From: a virus
Lineage: Duplodnaviria; Heunggongvirae; Uroviricota; Caudoviricetes
Length of the DNA stretch: 26,071 nucleotides
Direction: 5' to 3' (one strand)
IMG/VR virus record: IMGVR_UViG_2909309443_000007
Each line of letters starts with the position of its first letter. Position 1 is the stretch's first letter. Both the position numbers and the translations under genes were made by a program. The notes beneath the pieces are model-generated. The model had not been told where the DNA came from. It did not search any database and worked only from the letters and a program-made list of their open reading frames with translations. Positions 1,179 to 22,451 of the stretch are shown here, one piece after another.

Positions 1179-1373
1179 TCAGTCCAGTTTCCAGACAACT
1201 AGTGCGTCACCTTTTTGAAGGCGCTTTAAAGCACGTTTTAATCCAGGTCGGCCTGTCCTTGTTCCGCTTAATTTATCTTCAAATATTTGTTCACATCCTG
1301 CACAAACAAGAGCGTTTCGTTGCAGGTCTGTATTCTGGTCATTTGTTGATACCCTTACATAGCCAATCAGCAC
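1179..1373 (-). pseudogene. pin: Serine DNA invertase (Pin/Gin/Hin family) N-terminal remnant, 64 codons
   Basis: VLIGYVRVSTNDQNTDLQRNALVCAGCEQIFEDKLSGTRTGRPGLKRALKRLQKGDALVVWKLD matches recalled Pin N-terminus, then TGA. Sequence after the stop is the duplicated tfa 3' end. GTG start with GGGAGA Shine-Dalgarno. Confidence 0.75.
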
Positions 1374-1427
1374 GCTGAATCTCCCGTCCAAAAGCACAAA
1401 TCATGCCATGCAGGCCAGAAACGGCCA

Positions 1428-1453
1428 TTATCTAAAACCTCGGTTTACAGGAA
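1428..1453. promoter_or_regulatory. Invertase crossover site (gix/hix-like), site 1
   Basis: Reverse complement TTCCTGTAAACCGAGGTTTTAGATAA matches the recalled gix consensus at 25 of 26 positions. Lies between the pin remnant and the silent tail-fibre segment. Confidence 0.7.
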
Positions 1454-2437
1454 ACGGTAAGTCAGGCTTCTGGCGCATTACAGAAAAACCAGAACGGCGC
1501 AGATATTCCAGGAAAAGATACCTTCACCAAAAATATTGGTGCCTGCCGCGCATATAGCTCATGGCTGAATATTGGTGGCGATAGTCAGGTCTGGACAACC
1601 GCGCAATTTATTTCGTGGCTGGAGAGTCAGGGGGCATTTAACCATCCTTACTGGATGTGCAAAGGCTCATGGGCTTATGCAAATAATAAGGTCATTACAG
1701 ATACAGGTTGCGGAAATATTTGTCTTGCAGGTGCTGTGGTGGAAGTTATTGGCACTCGCGGCGCAATGACCATACGCGTTACTACGCCGAGCACGTCCAG
1801 CGGTGGCGGAATTACTAACGCTCAATTCACTTATATTAATCATGGTGATGCTTACGCTCCTGGCTGGCGACGAGACTACAACACGAAAAACCAGCAGCCT
1901 GCATTTGCTTTAGGGCAAACAGGACGCAGGGTCGCAAATGATAAAGCTGTTGGCTGGAACTGGAATAGCGGTGTTTATGATGCAGATATCAGTGGTGCAT
2001 CGACATTAATCCTCCACTTCAATATGAATGCGGGGAGTTGCCCTGCTGTACAGTTCCGCGTGAATTACAGGAACGGCGGTATTTTTTATCGTTCAGCGCG
2101 TGATGGTTATGGCTTTGAAGCTAACTGGTCAGAGTTTTACACCACAACACGCAAACCCTCTGCGGGGGATGTTGGTGCATATACGCAGGCAGAATGTAAC
2201 TCAAGGTTTATTACAGGTATTCGCCTTGGCGGTCTGTCATCTGTTCAGACATGGAAAGGCCCCGGCTGGTCTGACAGGTCAGGTTATGTCGTTACGGGTT
2301 CAGTTAACGGAAACCGTGATGAATTAATTGATACAACTCAGGCAAGGCCAATTCAGTATTGCATTAATGGGACGTGGTATAACGCGGGAGTATTTAACGA
2401 TGATGCACTTAAAAAACATTACTGCTGGCAACCCTAA
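1436..2437 (+). CDS. Silent alternative tail-fibre C-terminal segment (Sv'-like), no start codon of its own
   Basis: Reading frame opens inside site 1 and runs without stops to 2437. Would be fused in frame to the Stf constant part only after inversion. Confidence 0.6.
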   Translation, partial: NLGLQETVSQASGALQKNQNGADIPGKDTFTKNIGACRAYSSWLNIGGDSQVWTTAQFISWLESQGAFNHPYWMCKGSWAYANNKVITDTGCGNICLAGAVVEVIGTRGAMTIRVTTPSTSSGGGITNAQFTYINHGDAYAPGWRRDYNTKNQQPAFALGQTGRRVANDKAVGWNWNSGVYDADISGASTLILHFNMNAGSCPAVQFRVNYRNGGIFYRSARDGYGFEANWSEFYTTTRKPSAGDVGAYTQAECNSRFITGIRLGGLSSVQTWKGPGWSDRSGYVVTGSVNGNRDELIDTTQARPIQYCINGTWYNAGVFNDDALKKHYCWQP

Positions 2438-2933
2438 AACAAAAGAGCAATACCAGCTAACAAAGCAATTTAACATCAAATGGCTTTATTCAGATGATGG
2501 AAAAAACTGGTATGAGGAACAAAAGAATTTCCAGCCAGACACTTTGAAAATGGTCTATGACCATAACGGCGTTATTATTTGTATTGAAAAGGATGTTTCA
2601 GCAATTAATCCAGAGGGTGCAAGCGTCGTTGAATTACCTGATATTACAGCAAATCGCCGGGCTGATATTTCGGGGAAATGGATGTTCAAAGATGGCGTAG
2701 TGATAAAGCGAACTTATACCGAGGAAGAGCAGAGGCAACAAGCGGAAAATGAAAAGCAAAGCCTGTTGCAACTTGTCAGGGATAAAACCCAGCTATGGGA
2801 CTCACAGCTACGGCTGGGCATCATTTCCGACGAGAATAAACAAAAATTAACCGAGTGGATGCTCTATGCGCAGAAAGTCGAATCTACAGACACTTCCGGC
2901 CTGCCAGTAACGTTTCCCGAACAACCAGAATGA
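2400..2933 (+). CDS. tfa: Alternative tail fibre assembly protein (tfa')
   Basis: N-terminus [22 protein letters not shown] is homologous to the minus-strand tfa at 2962..3489; C-terminus diverges. GGAG Shine-Dalgarno upstream. Confidence 0.7.
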   Translation: MMHLKNITAGNPKTKEQYQLTKQFNIKWLYSDDGKNWYEEQKNFQPDTLKMVYDHNGVIICIEKDVSAINPEGASVVELPDITANRRADISGKWMFKDGVVIKRTYTEEEQRQQAENEKQSLLQLVRDKTQLWDSQLRLGIISDENKQKLTEWMLYAQKVESTDTSGLPVTFPEQPE

Positions 2934-2936
2934 GAG

Positions 2937-2964
2937 AAGGCCCGCTATCGGGCCTTAATTTTTA
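2937..2964. terminator. Hairpin between convergent tfa genes, acting as a terminator for the plus-strand tfa'
   Basis: AAGGCCCG-ctat-CGGGCCTT followed by a T-run on the plus strand. Confidence 0.5.
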
Positions 2965-3489
2965 CTCTGGTTTTTGTGGCCATTCAGGATTTGCCGTATC
3001 CACACGGCTGACCAGAACACTGTAGCGTTCCCATGCTTCCAGTCGTGTGCGTTCCTCGTCTGTTGCCATATTCAGCCTGACAGCGCGTTCCAGCGGTTGG
3101 ATGACTGATTCAGCTTCGGAAAGCAATGCGGCCTTTTGTGATTCGGCCTGTTGTTGTTGCTCGTCTGCCGTATAAATCCGTTTAACCACAGCTCCGTCCC
3201 TAAACATCCACTTACCGGAATCATCAGCGCGGCGGTTGGCTGTAATATCTGGAACCTCAACGACGCTATAACCTTCAGGGTTAAGCGTGGAGGCATCTTT
3301 GGTGATGGCGACAATAATATTATTTGCATCGTAAACAATCTTTATTGTGTCTGGCTGAAAGTTTTTCACTTCCTCATACCAGTTTTTACCGTCTTCTGTA
3401 TATAACCAGATAACATCAAAATTCTTTGTTAGCTGATATTGTTCTTTTGTTTTTGGATTTCCAGACTTAATATTTTTTAAATGCTGCAT
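2962..3489 (-). CDS. tfa: Tail fibre assembly protein
   Basis: 175 aa, Mu U/lambda Tfa-like. Immediately downstream of stf on the same strand. Confidence 0.8.
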
Positions 3490-3492
3490 AAA

Positions 3493-6400
3493 TTACACCT
3501 GTACGACGTTATACCATGTGCCATTGATGTATTTTTGTATTGGCCTGAAGATGGCTTCATCATCGCCATCTACTTCACCAATGATTCTTAATCCGGTAAT
3601 TGCGTGTCCGGCTTTTTCATAACGACCACCACGCGCCATCAATTGAACAACACGCGTACCCAGGCGAACATCTTTCACATAGCGGGAATCAAAATTCCCC
3701 CAGTTGCTGGGCTGTATCTGACCGTTAACAGCAAATGTTACTGAGTTATCTGTATTTCGCTGACTATAGAAATGCCAGCCTGAATCATCACCAAGCTCTG
3801 CAACAGTTGGTCTTGATGAAGTGCCCCATAAATTAAACCCTACGTTCTTCGTGGAGTTGTTGGAGCTGGATAGCGAGAATTTTTTACTATCACCTGCCTG
3901 AATGTTTTTAAAAGCAATAGCCACTCCATTCTGAAAGCGGAATACTCGCTGACTATTAGCGTAAACATCAAGAATACCATCACCATTCTGTTTAAATCCG
4001 GTATCATTATCACCAAGAACAATTGAGTTCCCACCCAACGCGTTATTCGTGCCAAGTGCCAGCCCGCCATCAATCCTGGCACCATTACCAACAGACACAA
4101 CTCCTGTTCTTAAGTTGATGTTGAATGGCCTTAATGGCCCAATATCTCCATTTTCACCCTCATTTTCTCGTGTAGGGATGATATGCAGGTGTTCTTCAGA
4201 ACGGCGAAAAATAGCACCAAAGGATGAATTAAAAATCCTCAGTGCATTGACTGTCGATATTTTTACTTCACTGCCGAAAAGGGCTTTAACAAGAACATAC
4301 AAAGCACCCCATTTAAGATTCATCAGGTCTTTTGTTGTGGTGCCATGGCGGCTTCTCCATTTGAAATATTCATTGCCGTTGTCGCCTGTTTCAAACCACA
4401 TGTATGAATCAGTATCGCTGTCGGCATCATTTTTAAATCCAATCTTCGCCCAGTCAGTATTTCTAATCCAGGCAAGGATTGAGTCGTTTGCAAAAGTAAG
4501 CCCACCGGACAAGGTATCGCCATTCTTTTGCACGGCGTTCCTGGCCCTGTTTACCGTTTCCTGTAAACCGAGGTATTCGATAACAGCGGCAACGGTCGAT
4601 TTCGCAAGAATATCCCGCCCGACTTTTGTCAGGGTTGCCAGGCTGGCGACATCATTCCCCGTAAAATACGGAAACCTGTCTGCCGCAGTAGCAAGCCCGG
4701 CCAGCGCCGTCAGGGTGGCATCTTTCGGTTGCTTACCCGCAAGCGCGTTAGTCATGGTGGTCGCAAAATTCGGGTCGTTTCCCAGCGCCGCCGCCAGCTC
4801 GTTCAGCGTATTCAGTGCGTCAGGCGACGAGTCTACAAGTGCGGCAATCGCGGCCATCACATAAGCCGTGCTTGCGATCTGAGTATTATTAGTCCCTTTT
4901 GGCGCAGTTGGCGTTGTTGGCGTTCCGGTCAGCGCAGGACTGTTTAAAGGCGCTTTCTTGTTCGTTTCATCCATTACCGCCTTAACCGCTTTTGGTGTCG
5001 CAGCCAGCGTTTCAGACGGGCTGTTAGTGGCGCTACTGAGCTGAACTATCCCTTTTCGTGCCGTCGTTGCATCCTGAGCGGTATATTTTGCGTTAGCAAG
5101 GTCATATGCTGCCTTTACTGCCTTTGGTGTTGCCGCCAGTGACTCGGAAGTGCTGTTGGTCGCACTGCTGAGCTGAACCACACCTTTTTTCGTCGTGCTC
5201 GCATCTTCCAGAGATACGGCATCAGCAATATCCTCTGCCCGTTTTGCTGCTGTTTCGGCACGCGTTGCCGCGGATTCAGCAGCAACTTTGCTCTGAGATG
5301 CAGCCGTCGCACTGCCTGCCGCCTCTGATGCTTTCGTTGTTGCTGTCGTGGCACTACCTTTCGCTGCTGACGCTTGTCTGGTCGCCTCATCTTTTGAAGC
5401 AGACGCAGATGATGCCGATGACGCCGCTGAACCAGCGGACGATGCGGCTGCCGCCTTAGAGGAAGCAGCATTGTCTGCTGAAGTCTTTGCATTTGTTTCA
5501 GAGGTTTTTGCTGCAGAAGCAGACCTCGCTGCTGCAGTGGCTTGCTTAGTGGCTTCGCCAGCCTTCGTTGTGGCTGTTGAAGCGGATGATGCGGCGCTTT
5601 CTGCCGATTTTCCGGCGGCGGTGGCACTGGCTGAGGCCTGCCCGGCACTTGTTGACGCGGCACTGGCCGACGATGCAGCCGCTGTTTTTGAACCTGCCGC
5701 AGCTGAGGCACTCTGTGCTGCTGCCGTTTCAGAAGACTTAGCGTTTGTCTCAGACGTCTTTGCCGCCTTCGCGGAATTTCCTGCCGCCGTTGCCGAGGAA
5801 GCTGCACTACTGGCACTTGATGATGCATTCGTTTCTGATGATTTCGCTGCCTCTTTTGAGGCCGCCGCCCCCCGTGCCGAGGTGGCAGCTTCTGACGCCT
5901 TCGTGGTCGCTGTGGATGCAGAAGTGGCTGCCGATTTTTGTGATGCTGCGGCATTCGTTTCTGACGTTTTCGCGGCACTGGCGCTGGTAGCTGCCGCGCT
6001 TTTTGATGACTCTGCAGCAGCAGCACTTTTCGCTGCTTCACTGGCCTTTGTCGATGCCGTTCCTGCGCTGGAAGACGCTGACTGAGCCGACGACGCGGCC
6101 TGTCCGGCTGACGTGCTGGCTGCGCGTGCTGAGCCTGCAGCATCAGTCGCATGGGTTGCCGCCTCACGGGCTGATGTGCTGGCATCACTGGCTGACTTCT
6201 TCGCGGCTGCCGTGTTCTGTGCCACTGCGGACGCGTTACGCGCCACCTCTTCCACCATCAGTTCAAAACGGCGCAGTGCCTCCGGACGGGCATCATCCTC
6301 CGTCATGGCACCGAGAAAATCATTCAGCGTACCGGGTCGGGAATCTTCATACACGGTGATGGTCCCGGCATGTGACGGCGGGAATCCGTCCACCAACAGA

Positions 6401-6582
6401 ATAACGCTGTACTGACCGTACTCAACGTCCATGCTGTAACGCCCGGCTTCATCCGGATTTTCTGAGGCCAGCGTGTTCACCACCACCGTGGTGCTGTTAC
6501 GTTTTGCTTTCAGCTGGATTGTGCAGTTCTGTACTGGTTTTCCTGTGCCGTCTTTCAGTACACCTGAAATCTTTACTGCCAT
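3493..6582 (-). CDS. stf: Side tail fibre protein (lambda Stf-like) with a long Ala/Ser/Thr-rich shaft
   Basis: N-terminus MAVKISGVLKDGTGKPVQNCTIQLKA… matches recalled lambda Stf. Contains the LNTLNELAAALGNDP and GIVQLSSATNS motifs. Distal part lies inside the invertible segment. Confidence 0.85.
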   Translation of the reverse strand: MAVKISGVLKDGTGKPVQNCTIQLKAKRNSTTVVVNTLASENPDEAGRYSMDVEYGQYSVILLVDGFPPSHAGTITVYEDSRPGTLNDFLGAMTEDDARPEALRRFELMVEEVARNASAVAQNTAAAKKSASDASTSAREAATHATDAAGSARAASTSAGQAASSAQSASSSAGTASTKASEAAKSAAAAESSKSAAATSASAAKTSETNAAASQKSAATSASTATTKASEAATSARGAAASKEAAKSSETNASSSASSAASSATAAGNSAKAAKTSETNAKSSETAAAQSASAAAGSKTAAASSASAASTSAGQASASATAAGKSAESAASSASTATTKAGEATKQATAAARSASAAKTSETNAKTSADNAASSKAAAASSAGSAASSASSASASKDEATRQASAAKGSATTATTKASEAAGSATAASQSKVAAESAATRAETAAKRAEDIADAVSLEDASTTKKGVVQLSSATNSTSESLAATPKAVKAAYDLANAKYTAQDATTARKGIVQLSSATNSPSETLAATPKAVKAVMDETNKKAPLNSPALTGTPTTPTAPKGTNNTQIASTAYVMAAIAALVDSSPDALNTLNELAAALGNDPNFATTMTNALAGKQPKDATLTALAGLATAADRFPYFTGNDVASLATLTKVGRDILAKSTVAAVIEYLGLQETVNRARNAVQKNGDTLSGGLTFANDSILAWIRNTDWAKIGFKNDADSDTDSYMWFETGDNGNEYFKWRSRHGTTTKDLMNLKWGALYVLVKALFGSEVKISTVNALRIFNSSFGAIFRRSEEHLHIIPTRENEGENGDIGPLRPFNINLRTGVVSVGNGARIDGGLALGTNNALGGNSIVLGDNDTGFKQNGDGILDVYANSQRVFRFQNGVAIAFKNIQAGDSKKFSLSSSNNSTKNVGFNLWGTSSRPTVAELGDDSGWHFYSQRNTDNSVTFAVNGQIQPSNWGNFDSRYVKDVRLGTRVVQLMARGGRYEKAGHAITGLRIIGEVDGDDEAIFRPIQKYINGTWYNVVQV
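4558..4583. promoter_or_regulatory. Invertase crossover site (gix/hix-like), site 2, inside stf, inverted relative to site 1
   Basis: TTCCTGTAAACCGAGGTATTCGATAA on the plus strand. Encodes the YLGLQETV motif of Stf; site 1 encodes NLGLQETV in the silent segment. Confidence 0.7.
4975..5195. repeat. Imperfect tandem duplication (about 85-bp units) inside stf
   Basis: Two similar DNA blocks encoding the duplicated peptide KG(V/I)VQLSSATNS.SE(S/T)LAATPKAVKA. Confidence 0.6.
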
Positions 6583-6593
6583 ATTCACCCCAC

Positions 6594-6619
6594 AAAAAAG
6601 CCCGCCTGAACCGGCGGGC
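6594..6619 (-). terminator. Rho-independent terminator downstream of lom
   Basis: Minus strand: GCCCGCC-ggttca-GGCGGGC followed by TTTTTT. Confidence 0.55.
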
Positions 6620-6646
6620 TGTCATAACACTGTGTTACCTGGCTAA

Positions 6647-7245
6647 TCAGAATTTATAACCGACACCCACGATGAACCCGTCAGTGCGCCAGTCACCACT
6701 GCCGGAGCCTTCATAAGCAAGGTCAATGGCCACGGATTCGGTCGGGTTAAACTGCACGCCAGCCCCCACGCCAGAGACGTGTTGCTGTGGCGACCGTCAT
6801 CACTTCCGGTCAGCACATCGTGCGTTTTCCCCTTGTTGTCAGTTACGCGAAGATAATCCCCGGAGAAAGTCGACACACGGCTGTAAGCCACACCCGCCAT
6901 CGCATACGCGCTGAACCATTCATTCACGCGCACAGACGGCCCCGCCATCACGCTGAACCAGCGGTTACGCACGGAATCTTCATGCCAGCGGGTATCGCTG
7001 TAATGCGTTTTTTGCTCATCTTTGGCATTGGCATAACTGAATGACGTCACCAGCCCCAGCGTGTCCGTAAATTCATAACGGTATTTCACGTTAATGCCCT
7101 TCAGGTCATCACTGCCTGGCATATCAGTATGGGTCTGAAGATACCCGGCGCTTAGTGTGGACTGATGCTCTGCTGCGCTCGCTGGCGTACCAGCGGCAAC
7201 CAGCCAGACTACTGCGGACAGAATAACAGCACATAATTTACGCAT
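6647..7245 (-). pseudogene. lom: Lom/Ail-family outer membrane protein, frameshifted near the C-terminus
   Basis: Signal peptide and Lom-like body. The canonical C-terminus …DWRTDGFIVGVGYKF is in another frame after a C5/G5 run at about 6763-6767. Confidence 0.7.
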
Positions 7246-7269
7246 AATTACCTCTCGCTTTTCTGCAAT

Positions 7270-7293
7270 AAAAAAGGCACCATTTCTGGTGCC
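7270..7293 (-). terminator. Rho-independent terminator downstream of the J fragment
   Basis: Minus strand: GGCACCA-gaaa-TGGTGCC followed by TTTTTT. Confidence 0.55.
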
Positions 7294-7312
7294 CGTATCT
7301 GGGTTATAAAAT

Positions 7313-9163
7313 TCAGCTAATCGTGATGCCTGTAGTGGCTTTCTTCATCACCACAACCAGCAAATCGCTGATACTTGCTGTGGGATACCAGTTATTTACC
7401 AGCCATGCTGACACCGAAAACTCCAGTGTCATGTGACCGTGACCGGCAGGCATATCAATAACGCCACTGTAAATCAGCGTATTATCCAGCGCGGTACGGT
7501 TATAAATTTCAGCACCGTTTTTCCGCACTATCAGACGGCATGAGGAGTAAATATCAGTATGCTCTCTCTCATGCTTAGCGCCACTGAATGCCACCGCCGG
7601 AATAACAATCTGCCGGTCAAACGGCTGATCGTCATAAACCCTGACGGTAATGGTTCCTGATGGCCACCGCTCCGGTGCACGGGAGTCCCGGGGGAAAGCT
7701 TTGCCCACTGTTTTAACGAGATCGCCTTCAATCTGGTTGGCGGACAGTTTTCCCAGAACCCGACAGTTCTCGTTAATCGTGACGTTGTTGAGCGTCCCGG
7801 AGTTCGCATTCACGTTACCGCTGATATCGGCATTTTTCGCCGTCAGCCGCCCGTCCGGTGTCAGGGAAAATGCCGGAGGATTACCGCCGCTGGTAATGGT
7901 GGGAGCCGTCAGGCGTTTCAGGAACACTTCGTTCATGAATATCTGATCGCCCTGACCAACAAACATCGGCTTTGTGTTGCCATTCGCAGGATTAATCATC
8001 GCAATCCTGTCTGCCGCCAGCAGCACCTGACTCTGCATGCCGTCAGGGGTGTTCTCAATACCGGCACCAATACCCGCGATATAAAGGCGTCCGTCCTGCA
8101 TCTGCTGCAGCTTCACAGCCCACATGCTGTTCAGGTTATTATTTGTATCAACCTGAACCTTCTGTATCTGCTGAATTGCCGCACTCTGGTCTTCCAGTTT
8201 CTTATTGACGGTCTGTGTGATTTCATTGCTGACATCCGTAATGGATGTCCTGATTTCAGCCAGGTCAGGCGCAAGCTGACCGTTATCAATCTGCGTCCAC
8301 AGCTCCTGAGCCAGATGGGTTTTCCCTATCTCGCCTTTGAAAAAATCCAGATAGCCGGATGCGTCATCACTCGGCTGACCAACAGCCTCCACGAATGCCG
8401 ATTTGCCAACGGTGTTCACACTGCGAACGTAAAAATAATAATCATGGCCCGGTTTGATATTGATACTGGCGGCTATCCAGTACAGCGCCGTGCCAAGATA
8501 GCGGGCTGTGGTTTCAACCTGCCTGATATCCGCAATCCGCTTTTCCGAGAACCAGAACTCAAACTGTACCGTCGGATCATAAACGGCAAGATGCGGCGTG
8601 GCGGTTATCTGAAAATAGCCCGGCGTCAGCTCAATCCGCGACGGCGCTGCCGGTGCGGCAATCCGGAACGATACCGACGCCGGATCGCCCTGCTGTCCCC
8701 ATGCATTTACTGCCCGGACTGTCAGCCTGTAGTTCCCCAGAGCCAGTTGTGTGAAGCGGTAAGTGGTTTCCGTCGTCCGGGCCGTGCTGACCAGCCGCTC
8801 ACTGCCGTCATCCGCTGCCACGGTCAGGCGAAGCATAAAGCTCACCCCCTTCACCACCTTCGGCGTGTCCCAGCGGGCCAGCACCTGGTATTCCCCGCTG
8901 TCTGCGGTGACTTCGGCGGTCAGATGCTGCACTGCTGGCGGCGTGACACCATTCACCGTGCCGCTCTGGTTACCGTCAAAGTGCGCCCCGTTATCCACGA
9001 TGGCTTCTTTCTCCGGTACATGCTGCACTGCAGTGATGGCATACGTACCGTCGTCGTTCTCACGGATACTCACACAGCGGAACAGGCGCTGGCGCAGCGT
9101 CGGCAGCTTCAGCCCCCACACGCTGTACTCGGCAACGCCGTCAGGAACCCGACTCACTTTCAC
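7313..9163 (-). pseudogene. J: Host specificity protein J, C-terminal fragment of roughly 615 codons (5' half deleted)
   Basis: C-terminus …[49 protein letters not shown]… matches recalled lambda J. Upstream frame joins an L remnant out of frame. Confidence 0.8.
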
Positions 9164-9164
9164 C

Positions 9165-9239
9165 TTCCCAGAGCACCACGCTGGCCGACTGCTCCGCACG
9201 GGTGCATTCATTCAGTGTTTCCTGCCGGATATCCTGCAT
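9165..9239 (-). pseudogene. L: Tail protein L, N-terminal 25-codon remnant
   Basis: ATG overlapping the M stop (ATGA) encodes [25 protein letters not shown] as recalled for lambda L, then jumps into J. Confidence 0.6.
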
Positions 9240-9568
9240 CAGTTCACCACCTGTTCAAACTCTGCGCTGAACTCAACACGCAGCATACTGACCCGCGACG
9301 ACCATTTTGCGCAGGTCACCTTTATCTGCCGCCACTCATAAGGCGGCGTCCACAGAAAGGCTTTCCAGCCCCCGTGCTCAGCCAGAAACGACTCCAGCGC
9401 CGTGGCCTCCTCACGGGAGACAGACAGCGTCACGCTGTACGTTTTCAGGTCAGCGTTCAGCCCGGCAGGCGCTCGCTGAGAATAGCCATCACCAAAGCGC
9501 ACCTTTCTTACGGAAGGGGCCGAAGCCACATCCATACCGGGTTTCGCTTTCCAGCGGAAGGTCTTCAT
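9239..9568 (-). CDS. M: Tail tip assembly protein M
   Basis: 109 aa, near-identical to recalled lambda gpM (MKTFRWK…EFEQVVN). Confidence 0.85.
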   Translation of the reverse strand: MKTFRWKAKPGMDVASAPSVRKVRFGDGYSQRAPAGLNADLKTYSVTLSVSREEATALESFLAEHGGWKAFLWTPPYEWRQIKVTCAKWSSRVSMLRVEFSAEFEQVVN

Positions 9569-12039
9569 CGTCCACCTCCGGAGAACAGACCACCATCGCG
9601 CATCTGTGCCTGAATTTCATCACGGGCCCCCTTACGGGCCATGTCATACACTGCCTTCATCATCTGTGGACCTGGCAGACCATTCGTACCGTCGTTCTGA
9701 ATCACCACGTGATTGTTCTGATTAAAATTAATGCCTTCCGCCCGCCGCATCTGCGCCGGACTTCCGGCACCGCCCACATAACCACCTTCCGCATAGCCGC
9801 GCATCAGCCGGTAGAGATTTCCCACGCCAATCCGGCTGGTTGCCTCCTTCGTGAAGACAAATTCACCACGGTGAACAATCCCCGCTGGCTCATATTTGCC
9901 GCCAGTTCCCGTAAATCCCCCGGTCGCAAAATGGAATTTTGCCGCAGCAGCCTGAATGGCTGTACCGCCTGACACTGATGCGCCACCACCGGCAGCACCG
10001 CCAATGGCGCTGCCGATACTCCCGACAATTCCCACCATTGCCTGCTTAAGCAGAATTTCTGTCATCATGGACAGCACGGAACGGGTGAAGCTGCGCCAGT
10101 TCTGCTCACTGCCGGTCAGCATCGCCGCCATATTCTGTGCAATACCATCAAAGGTCTGCGTGGCAGCACTTTTAACCTGCGACATACTGTCCGTGGCGCT
10201 CTCTTTCCACTCACTCCAGCCTGACCTGAGGCCTGCCATCCAGCTCCCGCGAAGCTGGTCTTCAGCTGCCCAGGTCTTTTTCTGCTCTGACATGACGTTA
10301 TTCAGCGCCAGAGGATTATCGCCATACTGTTCCTTCAGGCGCTGTTCCGTGGCTTCCCTCGCTGCCTGCCGGTCAGTCAGCCCCCGGTTTTTCGCATCAA
10401 TGGCGGCCCGTTTTGCCCGTTGCTGCTGTGCGAATTTATCCGCCTGCTGTGCCAGCGCGTTCAGGTGTTCCTGATAGGTGACCTTGTCGCCAAGTGCAGC
10501 CAGCTGGCGTTTGTACTCCAGCGTCTCATCTTTATGCGCCAGCAGGGATTTCTCCTGTGCAGACAGCTGGCGACGTTGCGCCGCCTCCTCCAGTACCGCG
10601 AACTGACTCTCCGCCTTCCACAAATCCCGGCGCTGCTGGCTGATTTTTTCATTCGCTCCACTATGCTGCTCAAGCATTTTTAGTTCAGCTTGTAACGCAA
10701 GAAGAGCTGCATGTGCTCGATCTTCCTGACGCTCTCCCGCAGCGGACTGCTTCGGCTTTTTCAGCGTCGCTTCATAGTCCTTTTTCGCCGCCGCCATCAG
10801 CGTGTTGTAATCTGCCTGCAGGATTTTCCCGTCTTTCAGTGCCTTGTTCAGTTCTTCCTGACGAGCGGTATATTTCTCCAGCGGCGTCTGCAGGCGTTCG
10901 TAAGCCTTCTGCGCCTCTTCGGTATATTTCAGCCGTGATGCCTCAGACTCGGCCCAGTCCTTTGCTGCCATCTCTCTGGCCTTTTCAAGATCGGCCTGCA
11001 ACGTGGCGGCTGAAAGCCCAAGTTGCGCATTCGCTCTGTCCTCCCATGCTCCCCGGAGATTGGCAAGAAATGCTGAGGTTTTACCGCGCCGGTGGCTCCG
11101 GCTCTGATACCACTGCCATTTTTTGTCCGCCTCATCAAAAGCCTTTTCTGCTTTCTCCAGCATTCCCTGGGCAGTGTCCGGGCGACCAATATCCAGCACC
11201 GCATCCCACATGGATTTGAATGCCCGTGCTGTCCTGTCTGCCCAGGTCTCCAGCGTGCCCATGTTCTCTTTCAGGCGGAGGGTCTGGTCATCAAACCCTT
11301 TCGTTGCGGCCTCGTTCGCCGCCTGCAATGCCCCGGCTTCATCTCCGGAACGCTGCAACTGAGCAACATACGCAATCTGCTCCGCCGTCACGTTATGGAA
11401 CTGACGTGCCATCGCTGTCAGTCCCGACGTCGGGTCTGTGGTCAGCTTCCCGAAGGCTTCAGCGACCTTGTCCACCTCCACGCCGGATGCAGAGGAGAAA
11501 CGCGCCACACTCTGGCTGATCGCCTCAAACTGCTCACCACCACGCACACCGGCATTCACCAGCGCCGTCAGTGACTCGCTGGTCTGGTTAAACGTCAGCC
11601 CTGCCGCCTGCCCGGCTCTGGACAGGACCAGCATACGATCTGCCGTCAGTCCCGCCTGATTGCCGGAAAGGACCAGCGTTTTGTTGAAATCGGACAGGGT
11701 TGAGTTGCCCTGATACCAGGCATACGCCAGCGCACCGGTCGCCACCGCCAGCGAGGTGGCCCCCACCATCGGCAGGGTGATCGCACCGGCAAGCCCCCTG
11801 AACATGGGGATCATCCCGCCGAAGGAGTCCTTCACCTGACCACCCTGTTGCAGCAGGATCAGCCACGGACTTTGCCCGCCTGCAAGCTGCGTGGCCACGT
11901 CAGTGAACTGTGCAGGCAGCATACGCATGGCGGCTTTATACTGTCCGACGGAAATGGCCATTGCGGCGGCACCGGGCACCGCCGTTCTGCTGATACGGCT
12001 GAGGTTTTCAACGGCCTGCTCAAGACCTTTTATGGCCAT
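9565..12039 (-). CDS. H: Tail tape measure protein H with its N-terminus replaced by the first 29 codons of Z (in-frame Z'-'H fusion)
   Basis: MAIKGLEQAVENLSRISRTAVPGAAAMAI matches recalled gpZ N-terminus; from SVGQYKAAMRMLPAQFTD… it matches recalled gpH to the C-terminus. 824 aa, shorter than lambda H. Confidence 0.75.
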   Translation of the reverse strand: MAIKGLEQAVENLSRISRTAVPGAAAMAISVGQYKAAMRMLPAQFTDVATQLAGGQSPWLILLQQGGQVKDSFGGMIPMFRGLAGAITLPMVGATSLAVATGALAYAWYQGNSTLSDFNKTLVLSGNQAGLTADRMLVLSRAGQAAGLTFNQTSESLTALVNAGVRGGEQFEAISQSVARFSSASGVEVDKVAEAFGKLTTDPTSGLTAMARQFHNVTAEQIAYVAQLQRSGDEAGALQAANEAATKGFDDQTLRLKENMGTLETWADRTARAFKSMWDAVLDIGRPDTAQGMLEKAEKAFDEADKKWQWYQSRSHRRGKTSAFLANLRGAWEDRANAQLGLSAATLQADLEKAREMAAKDWAESEASRLKYTEEAQKAYERLQTPLEKYTARQEELNKALKDGKILQADYNTLMAAAKKDYEATLKKPKQSAAGERQEDRAHAALLALQAELKMLEQHSGANEKISQQRRDLWKAESQFAVLEEAAQRRQLSAQEKSLLAHKDETLEYKRQLAALGDKVTYQEHLNALAQQADKFAQQQRAKRAAIDAKNRGLTDRQAAREATEQRLKEQYGDNPLALNNVMSEQKKTWAAEDQLRGSWMAGLRSGWSEWKESATDSMSQVKSAATQTFDGIAQNMAAMLTGSEQNWRSFTRSVLSMMTEILLKQAMVGIVGSIGSAIGGAAGGGASVSGGTAIQAAAAKFHFATGGFTGTGGKYEPAGIVHRGEFVFTKEATSRIGVGNLYRLMRGYAEGGYVGGAGSPAQMRRAEGINFNQNNHVVIQNDGTNGLPGPQMMKAVYDMARKGARDEIQAQMRDGGLFSGGGR

Positions 12040-12050
12040 ACATCCCCCTT

Positions 12051-12306
12051 TCAGCGGCGACGGTTAACGGCAGGCGGTACGCCCCGCCCAAGCCAGAGAT
12101 GACAGCTTCCGCCATCATCCGGCGAAATCCGGTCTATCCAGAAGTTTTCCTCACCGATGGTCAGCGTGTCGCCGCGCCGCAGCTGCCGCACATCATCAGT
12201 CCGGACAAACAGGGACGGGCTGGAGCCTTCAACGCGCACGCCCTGTCCGGCATAGCTGATATTTTCAGGGTCATCAAAAACACCACGTATCACAGCACCG
12301 GACTGC

Positions 12307-12336
<30 letters not shown>
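12051..12336 (-). pseudogene. Head-tail joining protein FII, C-terminal fragment
   Basis: MGTSATMTSGEQSGAVIRGVFDDPENISYAGQGVRVEG…PPAVNRRR matches recalled lambda FII from about codon 23. Joined directly to the truncated portal frame. Confidence 0.7.
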
Positions 12337-14177
<1,841 letters not shown>

Positions 14178-14181
<4 letters not shown>

Positions 14182-14402
14182 AGGTACTGCTCCAGCGGCA
14201 ACTGCAGCGCCTGCGCAATTTTCTTCAGTTGCGCTTCTTCTTCCTGACCGATACCGTCCTGGTCAGCGATATCCAGACACAGACACAGCACATTCACAGT
14301 ATCATCAGTATCTGCAACATCAGTCAGCTGACGAAGGGCTTCAGCATTAGCAGAACGCGGTGGCGCTTCATAACGGGCGCGGATATGAAAAAGGCCCGCC
14401 AA
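14178..14402 (-). other. 74-codon ORF with no ATG, probably a 3' gene remnant at the deletion scar between the tRNA cluster and W
   Basis: Acidic C-terminus …DIADQDGIGQEEEAQLKKIAQALQLPLEQYL. Only a TTG start, lying inside a hairpin next to the tRNA. Confidence 0.25.
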
Positions 14403-14424
14403 AGCGAGCCTGGAAAAATAAGCG

Positions 14425-14501
14425 TGGCGCGTTGTACTGGATTCGAACCAGTGACCGATTGCTTAGAAGGCAATTGCTCTGTCCGGCTGAGCTAACAACG
14501 C
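14425..14501 (-). tRNA. tRNA-Arg (anticodon UCU)
   Basis: Hand-folded cloverleaf: acceptor GCGTTGT/ACAACGC, anticodon loop CTTCTAA, T-arm GGTTCGAATCC, discriminator G plus CCA. Confidence 0.85.
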
Positions 14502-14514
14502 ATAATGCAGATAA

Positions 14515-14591
14515 TGGATTGCCATCGGGGACCCGAGCCCCACACAGCCAGTTTCGAAAGCTGGCACTCTCTGTCGATGAGCTAATGGCGG
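14515..14591 (-). tRNA. Degenerate tRNA-like sequence (Arg-like anticodon UCG), possibly a pseudogene
   Basis: D-arm and overall length are tRNA-like, but the acceptor stem has two terminal mismatches, the anticodon stem has a C-A mismatch, and the T-loop is CTCGGGT rather than TTCRAAT. Confidence 0.4.
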
Positions 14592-14598
14592 TATGTGA

Positions 14599-14674
14599 TG
14601 GTGGCCCTTGCTGGATTTGAACCAGCGACCTGGCGATTATGAGTCGCTCGCTCTCACCACTGAGCTAAAGGGCC
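14599..14674 (-). tRNA. tRNA-Ile2-like (anticodon CAU; Met not excluded)
   Basis: Hand-folded cloverleaf: acceptor GGCCCTT/AAGGGCC, anticodon loop CTCATAA, T-arm GGTTCAAATCC, CCA end. Closely resembles recalled E. coli ileX. Confidence 0.8.
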
Positions 14675-14723
14675 GGGAGCAGAATAATAATGGTGCGTAA
14701 TTAATTCTGCAATCTCATCCGTT

Positions 14724-15773
14724 TCAAACGATTAAATCCTGAACTTCCCTGACTGTCTGTTCAAAACGTCCTGTCTCCAGCTCAACACCAATCGCACAAC
14801 GCCCCAGTGCCATCGCCGCTTTTACCGTTGAACCTGAACCCATAAAAAAATCTGCAACCAGGTCTCCCGGACGACTGCTCGCGTTGATTATCTGCTGCAG
14901 CATTTCTGCCGGTTTTTCGCACGGATGTTTTCCTGGATAGTACTGCACCGGTTTATGCGTCCAGACATCGGTGTACGGAACCTGCGCCGTCACACCGAAA
15001 TACCGCCGCAAATTTTTATATTCACTCAGCAGTTCCGTGTACTGCCGGTTCAGCTCACTGTATGTGCTGACCAGCTGGTGGTGTGGCTTTTCCAGTTCCC
15101 CGCGCTGATGTTTTTCTGCCGCAACACGCGCAAACAACGCCTGCAATTTGTTGTAATCACCCTCGTTCGGTAACTGCCACTGACTGGTACCAAACCAGTG
15201 CGAAGCCATGTTTTTCTTTCCGGTGGCTTCCGCTATCTGTTTTGACGTTATTCCCAGTGATTTACGCGCATCACGAAAGTAAGAAATCAGCGGGGCCATG
15301 ACGTGCTGTTTTAGCTCGCGCCCCTGTGCCACATAGCCATCATCTTTCGGGCGATACGGTCCCTGATAATGTTCTGCAAACAGAATGCGCTCTGTTGCCG
15401 GAAAATACGCCCGCAGACTTTCCTTATTGCACCCGTTCCAGCGTCCGGACGGCTTCGCCCAGATAATGTGGTTCAGCACATTAAAGCGCTCACGCATCAT
15501 GATTTCGGTGTCAGATGCCAGGCGATGACCACAGAACAGGTAAAGACTTCCGGTAGGCTTCAGTACCCGCCAGAACTGCGCCAGACACTGGTCCAGCCAT
15601 TTCAGGTAATCATCGTCGCCCTCCCACTGGTTATCCCAGCCCTCGGGCTTCACTTTAAAGTATGGCGGGTCTGTGACTATCAGATCGACAGAATTTTCCG
15701 GTAAGGTCTGGATAAACTCCAGGCAATCAGCGTTGATTAACTCACAACTGGATATTTTTACAGTATTAATCAT
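14724..15773 (-). CDS. DNA amino-methyltransferase (N6-adenine or N4-cytosine), orphan
   Basis: DPPY motif (…LIVTDPPYF) near the N-terminus and an FxGSGST AdoMet-binding motif near the C-terminus. No restriction endonuclease partner nearby. Confidence 0.8.
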   Translation of the reverse strand: MINTVKISSCELINADCLEFIQTLPENSVDLIVTDPPYFKVKPEGWDNQWEGDDDYLKWLDQCLAQFWRVLKPTGSLYLFCGHRLASDTEIMMRERFNVLNHIIWAKPSGRWNGCNKESLRAYFPATERILFAEHYQGPYRPKDDGYVAQGRELKQHVMAPLISYFRDARKSLGITSKQIAEATGKKNMASHWFGTSQWQLPNEGDYNKLQALFARVAAEKHQRGELEKPHHQLVSTYSELNRQYTELLSEYKNLRRYFGVTAQVPYTDVWTHKPVQYYPGKHPCEKPAEMLQQIINASSRPGDLVADFFMGSGSTVKAAMALGRCAIGVELETGRFEQTVREVQDLIV

Positions 15774-15922
15774 AGATCAATAAGCACTTCTCTGATAGGC
15801 TCATACCGCTTTTGCGCAAAGCAGATGGGCCTGAGGTTTGCTTGTGACCCCAACGCATGAGCAGATGGCTGGCAGGTGCCGCTAACACCCCCAGCCGCCC
15901 ATTACCACAAATTAAAAAGCCT

Positions 15923-16120
15923 TCACTGCGGAAGGCGTCTGTAACAACCGAACTGATAATCTGCCAGACCCGCCATAACAAGCTGAGTCAGTATTAACTG
16001 GCAGCGTTCGCGTGAAAGGTAAGTATTCTGCGCAATTTCCCCGACGGTCGCCGGTTCGGTGATGCTTAATTCATTAAACACCACTCTGGCGGTTTCGGTC
16101 ATATCCTGCTGTTTTAGCAT
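15923..16120 (-). CDS. Small hypothetical protein (65 aa), possible helix-turn-helix
   Basis: ORF trimmed to the ATG at 16120, downstream of the terminator hairpin. Confidence 0.3.
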   Translation of the reverse strand: MLKQQDMTETARVVFNELSITEPATVGEIAQNTYLSRERCQLILTQLVMAGLADYQFGCYRRLPQ

Positions 16121-16243
16121 GCCTTTTTCCCTTTCCCGGTTAACGTGACATACCAATACCTCTTGTCGAAAAAGCCAGCAAGCTGAAAGACCGGCATTCG
16201 CAACCACCAGCGCATTTAACGTCCTGTACCGCTTTTCGGGCAC

Positions 16244-16267
16244 AAAAAAACCCGCATAAAGCGGGTT
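16244..16267 (-). terminator. Rho-independent terminator about 85 nt downstream of the Q-like gene (tR'-like)
   Basis: Minus strand: ACCCGC-tttat-GCGGGT followed by TTTTTTT. Confidence 0.55.
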
Positions 16268-16351
16268 CTTTCAGGTGTCCATGTCTGCTATTCGCCTCGC
16301 GGTATAGCTTTGCGAAGCGTAGCTGGATTGAAACAGTTTATGCGTAAAAAA

Positions 16352-16906
16352 TCAAGACATTTTTTGAGCAAACGATTCTCGCATAGGGATGTATAGCGCA
16401 TATTCAGCAACAGCTAACCAATTAGCAATTCGCTTTTCGCATGTACTAAAACACCATTCCGGGTGCACCTCATTCAACAATTCAGCCATTTTGCGTTTAC
16501 TCATCCCCCGCCCTTCGTACCTTTGCCGCAGGATATCAATCAATCCAGGATAACGTGCAAGCGCTTTACTTATCACCCCATCAATGCGTAACGCCTCTGC
16601 ATCAGTACAGTGAGACAACCAGCTCTTCTGTCTGCCAGCGATCATCTCTCGCAAGAATGCTTCCAGCTCTGGTTTATCAATCCCTGACTCCCTGATTCTA
16701 CGCAGGGCTTCATTGATTGCGGTTTTTGTCAGTTTTTTGGATGCCAGCAACTGATTGAACATATTTCCTGGTTTGCCACCACCTATATACGACCAACGCC
16801 CCCACATCCGTAATTTCCCCTGGATCCAGACGGCTTCCAGCGTTTTTAGACGTAAATGCTCGCCGCTTTTGCCTGTAATTTCCGGGTATATCATATTTAC
16901 GATCAC
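16352..16906 (-). CDS. Putative late-gene antiterminator (Q-like), 184 aa
   Basis: Called mainly from position: directly downstream of rusA, followed by a terminator and the late region. Sequence family not recognised with certainty. Confidence 0.5.
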   Translation of the reverse strand: MIVNMIYPEITGKSGEHLRLKTLEAVWIQGKLRMWGRWSYIGGGKPGNMFNQLLASKKLTKTAINEALRRIRESGIDKPELEAFLREMIAGRQKSWLSHCTDAEALRIDGVISKALARYPGLIDILRQRYEGRGMSKRKMAELLNEVHPEWCFSTCEKRIANWLAVAEYALYIPMRESFAQKMS

Positions 16907-17268
16907 TCACTCTCAATTTTGTAAATCTTCACGCCCAGCCGCCCCCCAGGAACGCGCTGACCGCGCACAATATTGATTTCATCAAACTGCTCGTCGTCTA
17001 TGAGAAGTCCGGCATGCGTCAGCGCATCCAGTGGTGCTTTCAGGATATTGTCCAGGTCACGACGACGTTTATCCGGTGGCTCTGCAATAATCTTTATCGC
17101 CAGCCTTCCGGACAGGTTTAATTTCAGCCGCTGCTGGCGAACAATAAGCGCCACATCACGGCGATAACGCTCACCGGCTTTTGATACAAAATATGTGCTG
17201 CCACGACGTCGCCAGTAAGTGTTCACCGTTGGCGGGTAAGGCAAAACAAATTCTATGCGTTCAGTCAT
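16903..17268 (-). CDS. rusA: Holliday junction resolvase RusA
   Basis: 121 aa with the RusA-type …DKRRRDLDNILKAPLDAL… motif. Overlaps the downstream gene start (ATGA). Confidence 0.85.
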   Translation of the reverse strand: MTERIEFVLPYPPTVNTYWRRRGSTYFVSKAGERYRRDVALIVRQQRLKLNLSGRLAIKIIAEPPDKRRRDLDNILKAPLDALTHAGLLIDDEQFDEINIVRGQRVPGGRLGVKIYKIESE

Positions 17269-19369: not shown

Positions 19370-20284
19370 ATGGCTAGCAAGCGCTTTTTCTTCGATTTTT
19401 ATCAATGTCACACTATAAGCACTGATACAAATGCAGGAGTTAATTCACCTGAAGCTGTTTTTTCAAAAATTTTTGAGTCATACAGCGAAGGCCGAGACAA
19501 AACTGTACGTAAAATAGGAAATAAACTAGTTGAAATGCGCTTCATGGAAAGAACCGACTATGGTTTCAGGGGAGTTATAGGAAAACACAGAACCAATAAT
19601 CTCCCTCATGTTGCTGTAGCCGGAGGTGAAGAAAGAGAAATTAAACTTGAAATCAATGAAAACTTATTAGAAAAAGCTTATTTTCATTTTTATACCCAAG
19701 ACTCAGTTTTAATAATTCAACGAAACAGACTCTGTTATGGCTGGTTGCTATTAAGTAAATATCTTTCCAACAGTTCACAAAATACAACTGTTAATCCCAT
19801 CATTCAGACCAGTAGTTTAAAGTGGTTGATGCGTAATGAAGTTCGAATCAAAACTCTAGAAATCGGTATCGCTCGGCCAAAGAATGTGCAACTATATGAG
19901 GATGTTGAACATAACTTCAACAATGCATTGATAGCCACTCTAAATGGTACTAATTCTGCCAAAGTAAATCTTACATTACGTGGGGATAGTCGTTCTGAAG
20001 ATCCTGAATCTCGCTATCTAGGTTCTCAACTAAAAAGAGCCTTTAAAGAAACACTAGAGACTTTTGAGGTTGAAAAACTTAAACTAGAAACCCAAGACAT
20101 TGAGACCGGTGTACAGCATCCTATCGATCTTGTAGCAGACAAATTAGTCTACTACACAGATGTTGAACTTGGAGGTAGGTATCCATTAGTTGGCAGCATT
20201 TGGAGCGCCTTAACTCTTGCAAAAGATAGTAAAGATGATGAATTGAAGGCATACTTTGGAGTAGCCAATCAAAGAGTTGATTAA
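19370..20284 (+). CDS. Hypothetical soluble protein (304 aa), candidate sensor component of a two-gene module
   Basis: Long ORF in an AT-rich island. No recognisable catalytic motif (no P-loop). Charged, probably helical C-terminal region. Confidence 0.55.
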   Translation: MASKRFFFDFYQCHTISTDTNAGVNSPEAVFSKIFESYSEGRDKTVRKIGNKLVEMRFMERTDYGFRGVIGKHRTNNLPHVAVAGGEEREIKLEINENLLEKAYFHFYTQDSVLIIQRNRLCYGWLLLSKYLSNSSQNTTVNPIIQTSSLKWLMRNEVRIKTLEIGIARPKNVQLYEDVEHNFNNALIATLNGTNSAKVNLTLRGDSRSEDPESRYLGSQLKRAFKETLETFEVEKLKLETQDIETGVQHPIDLVADKLVYYTDVELGGRYPLVGSIWSALTLAKDSKDDELKAYFGVANQRVD

Positions 20285-20299
20285 TTTTGGAGCGATGGT

Positions 20300-20779
20300 A
20301 TGAAAAAGGGGAAATTGATAACTTTGTACAGTTATGGTTATAATTTAGCCTCTGTTGTTTTTTGTATCATCGCATGGCCTCTTTCTGCAAAGCTAAATTT
20401 TGCACAAATTCAGCCAATCGCTTCGGCCGTTTCTACATTTTCTGGGATATTATTTGGCTTTGTTTTAGGTTCGCTTACCTTGATTGCTTCAGCTAGAGAT
20501 AATACGCTAATTAGAAATATAGGAAAAACTGGTTATTTGAAAAAACTGACCGAAGAAATGCACTCCACTATGGGATGGTTACTATCAGTTTGTATTATTT
20601 TTATCATTTTATTATTTTTCCCTGATACACTAAAGTTTAAATTCCCACTAGTAAAAGATGCCGACGAGCACACATATGCCCAACTATTACTCCAAGTGGG
20701 AATTTTTTTCCTGCTTATTACATTTAAAAAATTTTATACTACCTGGTCGCGTCTAAAGGACATAACAAGGCTCATGTGA
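20300..20779 (+). CDS. Hypothetical membrane protein (159 aa) with four predicted transmembrane helices, candidate effector
   Basis: Four hydrophobic stretches of about 18-24 residues. Starts 15 bp after the upstream stop with GGAG in the gap. Confidence 0.6.
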   Translation: MKKGKLITLYSYGYNLASVVFCIIAWPLSAKLNFAQIQPIASAVSTFSGILFGFVLGSLTLIASARDNTLIRNIGKTGYLKKLTEEMHSTMGWLLSVCIIFIILLFFPDTLKFKFPLVKDADEHTYAQLLLQVGIFFLLITFKKFYTTWSRLKDITRLM

Positions 20780-20784
20780 TATAT

Positions 20785-21174
20785 CTATAATTGCACATAA
20801 AAAGACAATCCTAACAATACTCCCATTGTAAGTTGTATATTCTTTCTTATTGTTCCATCTGAACATTTGTACCTTCGTGCTATTGTACGCAAAGATATAC
20901 CTATAACAAAATGAGCGATAATTAACTCATAGTCATCTATTCTATATTGTTTAAGCTTCAACATGCAGGTATCAATCATACGACCTTCATCGTTGCCACA
21001 CTGACGGCGTAATTTCTTACCATGAGGTACTACATCTTTATATTTATCAGCCACTTGCTGCCAGTTGATAGAACTATTTCCAGCTGCAGCCCAAGCCCCC
21101 CCAACTGTCCAAAATATCATATATATTAGCATTGCTATCCACCTTTTTTTTATATTCTTTTTTGAGGCAACCAA
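20785..21174 (-). CDS. Hypothetical protein with a sigma-70 region-4-like helix-turn-helix C-terminus
   Basis: …YELIIAHFVIGISLRTIARRYKCSDGTIRKNIQ… resembles ECF-sigma region 4. Hydrophobic N-terminus. Overlaps the upstream 82-aa ORF by about 100 nt, so a frameshifted single gene is possible. Confidence 0.4.
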   Translation of the reverse strand: MVASKKNIKKRWIAMLIYMIFWTVGGAWAAAGNSSINWQQVADKYKDVVPHGKKLRRQCGNDEGRMIDTCMLKLKQYRIDDYELIIAHFVIGISLRTIARRYKCSDGTIRKNIQLTMGVLLGLSFYVQL

Positions 21175-21310
21175 GAAGCATCCTGGCCATCGTTATTATT
21201 TCTATACTTGTAACTGATTCATAAGCATCAGGAGAAATAATCCTCCCATCACTTAATGCCCTTTCACTAAGATTTGCTATTTCCAATAATCGTTCTTTAG
21301 TTATTTCCAT
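21074..21310 (-). CDS. Hypothetical protein (about 78 aa)
   Basis: AT-rich ORF with GGAG before the second ATG. Could be the N-terminal part of a split sigma-like gene. Confidence 0.35.
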   Translation of the reverse strand: MEITKERLLEIANLSERALSDGRIISPDAYESVTSIEIITMARMLLGCLKKEYKKKVDSNANIYDILDSWGGLGCSWK

Positions 21311-21424
21311 TATTATCTCCACCGCCCTTTCGGGCGGCCTCCTGATGTTCTGAGGGTGCAGAAATCCCTCCGGTTAAGGATTAAATTTTATTTACAGTGC
21401 TGGATTTAATTATTCAGATTTGGA

Positions 21425-21700
21425 TTATGCTTTCTCTTCACTCCGGTATACAAGAATTACAACGTCACCTCTGCTAATCACGCGAGCTGGCTCTCCTGGT
21501 TCTATACTGTCAATATCGAAGGTCTCAAAAAACGCATTCATTGCCTTCTGCCGCTGCGTCTGTTTACAGCGTTTATTCCATTCTTTCAGTAACATCAGTG
21601 ACAGCCACCGCCATGAGCAGAACATGATGTAGCACCAACCAAGAAGCGCCAGCCCCGTATTGAGGGCCGTACCAATCGTCATTGTTGCGTCGATATTCAC
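21425..21700 (-). CDS. Hypothetical small membrane protein (91 aa)
   Basis: GTG-initiated ORF with a hydrophobic N-terminal segment. Confidence 0.35.
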   Translation of the reverse strand: MNIDATMTIGTALNTGLALLGWCYIMFCSWRWLSLMLLKEWNKRCKQTQRQKAMNAFFETFDIDSIEPGEPARVISRGDVVILVYRSEEKA

Positions 21701-21986: not shown

Positions 21987-21988
21987 TC

Positions 21989-22411: not shown

Positions 22412-22451
22412 AAGTCCTCCTGAAAATTACCTCATGACCAGAAATCAACAC

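Follow-up and report, generated by a model that had tools for sequence, protein, structure and literature searches.

Cryptic lambdoid prophages and the intact relative

Defective lambdoid prophages are known from E. coli K-12, where they include Rac, Qin, DLP12 and e14, and from O157:H7 Sakai, with its defective Sp prophages. The element described here resembles these cryptic prophages in being fixed in the chromosome and in having lost lysis, packaging, head and tail genes by internal deletions, while regulatory and accessory genes, in this case dicB, hokD, rusA, lom and the tail-fibre genes, have been kept. Unlike the old K-12 relics, it has an intact counterpart in sister strains, integrated at the same attachment site, which allows each deletion to be mapped to the base and the deletions to be partly ordered; for the K-12 relics this is not possible.

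The window, i.e. the whole analysed stretch of 26,071 nucleotides (IMG/VR record IMGVR_UViG_2909309443_000007), ends short of the host flanks, and the integration site was read from E. coli strains E1433, 504838 and E8. In E1433 and 504838 the element is situated between potB and potC and carries the integrase (int) and excisionase (xis) genes, and E8, as fetched, shows the potB side. The prophage of 504838 has an uninterrupted late operon (holin, nu1, A, W, B, C, D, E, FI, FII, Z, U, V, G, T, H, M, L, K, I, J, lom, stf) and served as the intact relative. The window is 100.000% identical to GenBank CP024266.1 (locus L011) over the overlapping 22,039 bp and 99.96% identical to E8; a synonymous C to T change located 15 nt past the joint described below occurs only in the window and CP024266, not in E8. 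The host is an enterotoxigenic-type E. coli lineage. Based on the lambda-like gene order, the chromosomal integration and the loss of particle genes, the element can be classified as a defective (cryptic) lambdoid prophage.

Structure of the L'-'J joint

All genes around the joint are encoded on the minus strand. Gene M (9239..9568), encoding the distal tail protein of 109 aa, is present in the ORF list as an intact gene and was confirmed by Pfam (Phage_min_tail, E = 1.4e-39); its product corresponds to WP_001417644.1, the accession under which M is annotated in E8 as well as in 504838. The TGA stop codon of M (9241-9239) and the ATG start codon of L (9239-9237) share a single A. This 1-nt overlap, TGATG, is the same base for base as in lambda (13415-13445) and replaces the 'native ATGA overlap' that had been given in an earlier note on this DNA. 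The L' remnant (9165..9239) comprises the first 25 codons of the minor tail/hub protein L directly after M, as the note had recognized, and all 25 residues are identical to residues 1-25 of lambda gpL. Its ORF extends from 9239 to 9141, practically the interval 9140-9240 that had been proposed for the joint, and consists of the 25 L codons followed by seven out-of-frame codons derived from J (GESESGS) and a TGA stop at 9143-9141. In the intact relative 504838, L encodes 232 aa; in the window no functional gpL with the Phage_tail_L domain (PF05100) was found.

Three-way alignments with the 504838 prophage and lambda, together with BLAST, placed the deletion joint at 9165..9167, where the trinucleotide GAA is common to both parental sites. 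The join is seamless, with zero filler bases, and GAA is all that the two parents have in common at this point. The BLAST break at window 9165/9167 corresponds to a transition from 13503 to 17130 in lambda and from 9336 to 12963 in the prophage of strain 504838 (locus L003), so the breakpoint expected near 9164 had been right within 1-3 nt. Compared with either reference, 3,629 bp are missing, including L codons 26-232, the whole of K and I, and J codons 1-542. This supports the initial description of a deletion that removed most of L, K, I and the 5' half of J. J resumes at codon 543 (AAG, 9166-9164), and because 3,629 equals 3n+2 it does so in the +1 frame relative to L'; the proposed entry into the middle of J in a different frame was thereby borne out. 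The flanks match the intact relative with 100% identity over 2.1 kb on the left and 99.94% over 9.2 kb on the right, a similarity that, as judged from these alignments, lies far above chance.

A designed L'-J' fusion or a programmed frameshift was also considered and was rejected on account of the +1 frame difference, the stop of L' seven codons past the joint, and the mere abutment of the two parental sequences.

The J' remnant

The J remnant (7313..9167, minus strand) contains J codons 543-1159 and the stop codon, and is identical in 617 of 617 amino acids to residues 543-1159 of gpJ of 504838. What is left of the protein is the end of HDIV, followed by two Ig-like (FNIII) domains, the central fibre and the receptor-binding domain. 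Four Pfam families were found above their cut-offs, i.e. Ig_J, Ig_J_second, Phage_Tail_Tip and Ig_GpJ_C, the last of which represents the C-terminal receptor-binding part that had been reported as retained. The remnant also matches the lambda gpJ chains of PDB entries 8iyk, 9e7m and 8xcj. Towards residues 543-1131 of lambda gpJ it shows 70% identity, distributed unevenly over the block of HDIV end and Ig-like domains (96%), the central fibre (65%) and the receptor-binding domain (41.6%). At the low identity of this last domain to its lambda counterpart, LamB specificity should not be assumed, and the receptor need not be LamB.

In lambda, the gpJ hub domains HDII, HDII-insertion, FNIII-A, HDIII and HDIV make up the conical tip jointly with gpL and gpI. 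Compared with lambda gpJ, J' is devoid of residues 1-542, which comprise HDII, HDII-insertion, FNIII-A, HDIII and most of HDIV. A beta-sandwich (483-569) that is inserted in HDIV is interrupted by the break at residue 543. The alignment that had been suggested as a check for an N-terminally complete J thus places the start of J' at residue 543. Accordingly, a Pfam search of J' for the hub domains FNIII-A_GpJ and Phage-tail_3, both present in the intact J of 504838, gave no match. The native start codon of J and its upstream partner genes K and I all lie inside the missing 3,629 bp. Because every hub domain is gone, J' is unable to build a tail tip.

A polypeptide from this region is a different matter. 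A fortuitous ORF of 632 codons (7313..9211, minus strand), found in the ORF list and its translation, starts at an ATG at 9211 inside L', right after an in-frame TGA, and encodes 15 novel codons followed by J residues 543-1159. The ATG is preceded by AGGAA, a modest Shine-Dalgarno match. The anti-Shine-Dalgarno duplex energy was calculated as -5.7 kcal/mol for ATG 9211 and -7.7 for a GTG at 9157 beside the joint, against -3.2 to -10.8 for eight annotated gene starts in the window. Gene callers have called the 632-aa ORF in public assemblies. On the coding strand, a consensus scan of positions 6400 to 10000, which is weak evidence, found no sigma-70-like promoter, and a hairpin with a T-run just past the J stop (7275..7294, minus strand) resembles a terminator by pattern match only. 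Given transcription of the late operon, a truncated J' polypeptide could thus be translated. The earlier statement that J' 'cannot be expressed as a tail-tip protein' holds for the tail-tip function, no hub domain being left, but not for expression as such, for which an ORF with an ATG exists.

J' carries no amino-acid changes relative to the intact 504838 allele, while the strains differ by about 2-3 substitutions in 9 kb. This identity fits recency and is read as a sign of it rather than of selection, retention by selection being the less likely reading. The adjoining lom gene is frameshifted in this window.

Other deletions in the late operon

Over its length the window is colinear with the 504838 prophage at 99.9-100% identity, apart from four clean deletions, and about 8 substitutions distinguish the shared sequence from the intact relative outside one recombinant patch in H. 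In comparison with lambda, colinearity extends over W-B'/FII'/Z'-H-M-L'/J'-lom-stf. The four deletions add up to 14.5 kb and took away, among others, genes for lysis, terminase, capsid, tail tube and tail-tip assembly; the lysis genes and nu1, A, C, D, E, FI, U, V, G, T, K and I are absent, and of W, B, FII, Z, H, L and J only parts are left.

The three joints besides L'-'J are likewise located on the minus strand. At the Z'-'H joint (11953-11955; 3 nt, ATT) 2,658 bp are missing, comprising the rest of Z, the genes U, V, G and T, and the 5' end of H. The result is an in-frame fusion ORF of 824 aa (9565..12039) with a Pfam match to Minor_tail_Z in residues 3-36, followed by TMP_2. The B'-'FII joint (12339..12340; 2 nt, AC) lacks 3,425 bp, encoding the portal C-terminus, C, nu3, D, E, FI and the FII 5' end, and the flanking remnants are recognized by Pfam. 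The holin'-'W joint (13884..13887) lacks 4,834 bp: the first holin gene is mostly gone, the second holin gene, the endolysin gene, nu1 and A are missing, and W has lost its 5' end. In the BLAST alignment the two sides of this joint overlapped by 4 nt; direct inspection reduced the overlap to a perfect microhomology of 1 nt (A at 13884) within the imperfect match GG(T/C)A, and 1 nt was used in the statistics.

For a DUF6731 gene pair, a PADLOC scan returned a marginal match to RexB only (E = 0.0015).

Occurrence of the joint and public annotation

Screening of 5,426 complete RefSeq E. coli genomes revealed the L'-'J joint in four: E8, E1648, E1654 and E1739. Five further assemblies containing it were reached via the Z'-'H fusion protein and screened for the joint with a 30-mer, by which E8 was confirmed likewise; these are GCA_012388275, CP024266, GCA_000356705, a Logan short-read assembly and an ENA metagenome. 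With at least nine other assemblies carrying the joint, an assembly artefact is excluded.

RefSeq already flags L and J at this locus as truncated pseudogenes. In the PGAP/RefSeq annotation of E8 (NZ_CM180514.1), the halves of the joint are covered by ACU1HZ_RS06165 and ACU1HZ_RS06170: a 'phage minor tail protein L', incomplete and missing the C-terminus, which spans the same 75 nt as the L' remnant, and directly next to it a 'phage tail tip domain-containing protein' missing the N-terminus. This annotation marks the same joint but gives neither the deletion size and parental configuration nor the microhomology and the history.

Order of the losses

An identical Z'-'H fusion protein is encoded by five other loci (L009, L010, L014, L015 and L017) that have full-length L, K and I as well as the N-terminal hub of J, and that carry different deletions elsewhere. 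From the presence of the fusion alongside intact L, K, I and the J hub it follows that the Z-H deletion is older and that the deletions were sequential; the L-J deletion took place afterwards, in one sublineage. A single origin of all four deletions is ruled out for Z-H by the same observation.

The holin-W, B-FII and Z-H joints are common to six complete genomes, two of which (E54 and E1316) are without the L'-'J joint. E54 lacks it because an H-to-stf deletion erased that area: 8,308 bp relative to the intact prophage, with an AAG microhomology, so that M, L', J' and lom were removed. In GCA_012388275 the portal remnant has lost about 1 kb more through an additional deletion. The same prophage in strain E1433, from Morocco, has undergone independent losses, including a 205-bp deletion in L at a microhomology of 8 nt. 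Among the assemblies seen, none contained only a subset of the holin-W, B-FII and L-J joints. Taken from these comparisons, stepwise deletional decay is the observed mode for this element, with sister lineages having lost other pieces independently.

Junction microhomology and proposed mechanism

The extent of microhomology was compared with a null obtained from the same DNA with shuffled positions. Considered alone, the L-J joint gives P(>=3) = 0.058, so its 3 nt are only suggestive. The other junctions share 1, 2, 3, 3 and 8 nt. The sum amounts to 9 nt for the four junctions of the window (P about 0.011), to 12 nt for five junctions when the E54 deletion is added (P about 0.003), and to 20 nt for six with the L deletion of E1433 (P about 1e-5). 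Collectively, the six junctions are non-random in their microhomology. The junctions connect non-homologous sites, and no IS ends, att-like sites or long repeats are present at them.

End-joining in E. coli yields large deletions at microhomologies, as PMC4872102 cites from Chayot et al. 2010, and a general deletion bias has been described for bacterial pseudogenes (PMC6054270). The junctions described here resemble the deletions attributed to alternative end-joining or slippage in E. coli in being seamless joins on the kilobase scale at 1-8 nt of microhomology, with the pathway here read from the junction signature. It is proposed that L codon 25 and J codon 542/543 were brought together at GAA by a break or a replication slip, most probably through RecA-independent illegitimate recombination, either as replication slippage or as alternative end-joining. 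The join is out of frame; L' ends after seven extra codons, and J' has lost its own start together with all hub domains. In the proposed order of events, the Z-H deletion came first, the holin-W, B-FII and L-J deletions followed in the sublineage, and the H-to-stf deletion then took out the whole area in a sub-branch. The L-J deletion itself was presumably neutral and would have left a scar without a function of its own. With a probability of roughly 0.93, the L'-'J joint is the scar of a spontaneous 3,629-bp deletion within the prophage and a late step in the stepwise decay of its late operon.

Alternative explanations

Four deletions of 2.7-4.8 kb within about 26 kb contrast with only some 8 substitutions towards the intact relative outside the H patch, and the holin-W, B-FII and L-J joints always occurred together in the assemblies seen. 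Both observations would be expected if the late-operon deletions, either all four or these three, had arisen in one complex event by MMBIR/FoSTeS-like template switches or multi-break repair. However, Z-H is demonstrably older than the others, single deletions were added later in E54 and GCA_012388275, and E1433 gathered a different set of deletions independently; we regard a one-event origin as unlikely. That the joint is an artefact of assembly or sequencing, or a chimera of two resident lambdoid prophages, carries a negligible probability. E. coli genomes match the stretch in a median of 3 places and a maximum of 14, which does create a hazard of misassembly, but the identical joint is found in long-read chromosomes, drafts, short-read Logan contigs and a metagenome, and both flanks match one orthologous prophage at the same chromosomal site with 99.9-100% identity.

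A different question is whether J' has been kept for a use, which could be that of a free trimeric fibre or receptor-binding protein made from ATG 9211 or GTG 9157, or of a cassette donating receptor-binding sequence to co-resident lambdoid phages. The intact 632-codon ORF with its moderate Shine-Dalgarno match, the absence of any amino-acid change relative to the functional allele and the completeness of the fibre and receptor-binding domains point in this direction. Against this, recency alone predicts such identity when the strains differ by about 2-3 substitutions in 9 kb, the branch of E54 and E1316 deleted J' along with lom, and the frameshift in the adjoining lom argues against selection on the block. 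The consensus scan that found no sigma-70-like promoter in the interval given above, and the lack of an export signal or surface route, speak against it too, and a useful J' is considered scarcely credible. A broader version, in which J' and the neighbouring invertible tail-fibre cassette are kept together as a module, to provide a free fibre during late transcription or to act as host-range donor to co-resident or superinfecting lambdoid phages, is very unlikely. If it were true, the scar would be the edge of a domesticated host-range reservoir and not junk.

Significance for prophage decay

Read as the trace of a spontaneous intra-prophage deletion, the L-J scar is ordinary prophage decay. 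For the annotation of this locus it means that L and J should count as pseudogenes and that no induction to particle production is to be expected of the prophage. The joint also provides a handy clonal marker of the sublineage. Moreover, at least six independent deletions of this prophage can be resolved to the base at their junctions and partly put in order, which makes the prophage a useful case for the study of deletion rates and junction signatures in prophage decay in enterotoxigenic-type E. coli.

Lesions of the late operon

The deletion joint between the tail-completion gene Z and the tape-measure gene H (11953-11955) is in frame, and leaves an 824-aa Z'-'H fusion ORF on the minus strand (9565-12039), whose product consists of 36 residues of tail-completion protein Z followed by the tape-measure protein without its first residues. 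This fusion is common to lineages whose later decay took different courses, and it is the oldest lesion of the late operon.

Independent or further deletions of the same prophage, located between potB and potC, could be found in E1433, E54 and GCA_012388275. In E1433 (NZ_CM180511.1, locus positions 20251-23176) these run from the holin to E and from FII to M, with another 205 bp lost in L at an 8-nt repeat. The E54 locus carries a deletion from H to stf (locus positions 17020-17041); E1316, which also has no L-J joint, probably carries the same one. In GCA_012388275, an additional ~1 kb is gone from the portal remnant, around locus position 9500.

Comparison of the H-M-L' block with the prophage of 504838, an E. 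coli strain in which it is intact, revealed 38 substitutions, all within ~630 bp of H (11311-11944) directly after the Z-H joint and with a peak density at 11521-11569, while from 11311 to the L-J joint there were no substitutions. This patch looks like the result of recombination or gene conversion from another lambdoid tape-measure gene.

Outer-membrane protein and tail-fibre genes

Compared with WP_001393473.1, the 199-aa allele found in 504838 and in E8, a strain carrying the L-J joint, the lom gene (Ail/Lom outer-membrane protein; 6643-7245, minus strand) has a frameshift following residue 161. The last ~38 residues are replaced through the frameshift, and the Pfam Ail_Lom match of the window gene is restricted to positions 1-164 of 199. 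The resulting 200-aa form is also present in GenBank record CP024266.

The segment with the tail-fibre C-terminus and the assembly gene (1428-4583) forms an invertible cassette, flanked by inverted repeats of 33 nt each (1428-1460 and 4551-4583), which are 94% complementary. Its orientation is the same in the window and in 504838, while it is flipped in E8, otherwise 99.96% identical to the window, and in one Logan contig (from a short-read assembly), which points to an inversion that is recent or ongoing. Of the adjoining invertase gene (1179-1397, minus strand), only an N-terminal stub of the Resolvase domain (72 aa) is left; inversion of the cassette would therefore need a recombinase acting in trans.

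Accessory genes and early region

The prophage carries two tRNA genes on the minus strand downstream of a DNA methyltransferase gene (14425-14501 and 14599-14674). Beside a gene for tRNA-Arg (TCT), there is one with a CAT anticodon, which ARAGORN assigns to Met and the PGAP annotation of E8 to tRNA-Ile; it is presumably of the lysidine-modified Ile2 type.

Between the Q antiterminator gene and hokD, a two-gene insert (19370-20779, plus strand) lies antisense to the neighbouring prophage genes. Its first gene encodes a 304-aa DUF6731 protein; the product of the second, 159 aa long, matches RexB marginally in PADLOC (E = 0.0015). In size and arrangement the insert resembles the rexA-rexB exclusion pair, of which it may be a counterpart.

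Two different antiterminator-type genes (DUF1133/Q-like and Phage_antitermQ) are located on the minus strand at ~16350-16900 and ~20780-21330, approximate positions transferred by correspondence with the E8 annotation. Further prophage genes include dicB, hokD, rusA and a YdaT-family toxin gene. Together they form a mosaic of early regions resembling those of Qin and Rac, which is joined to a late operon resembling that of lambda.
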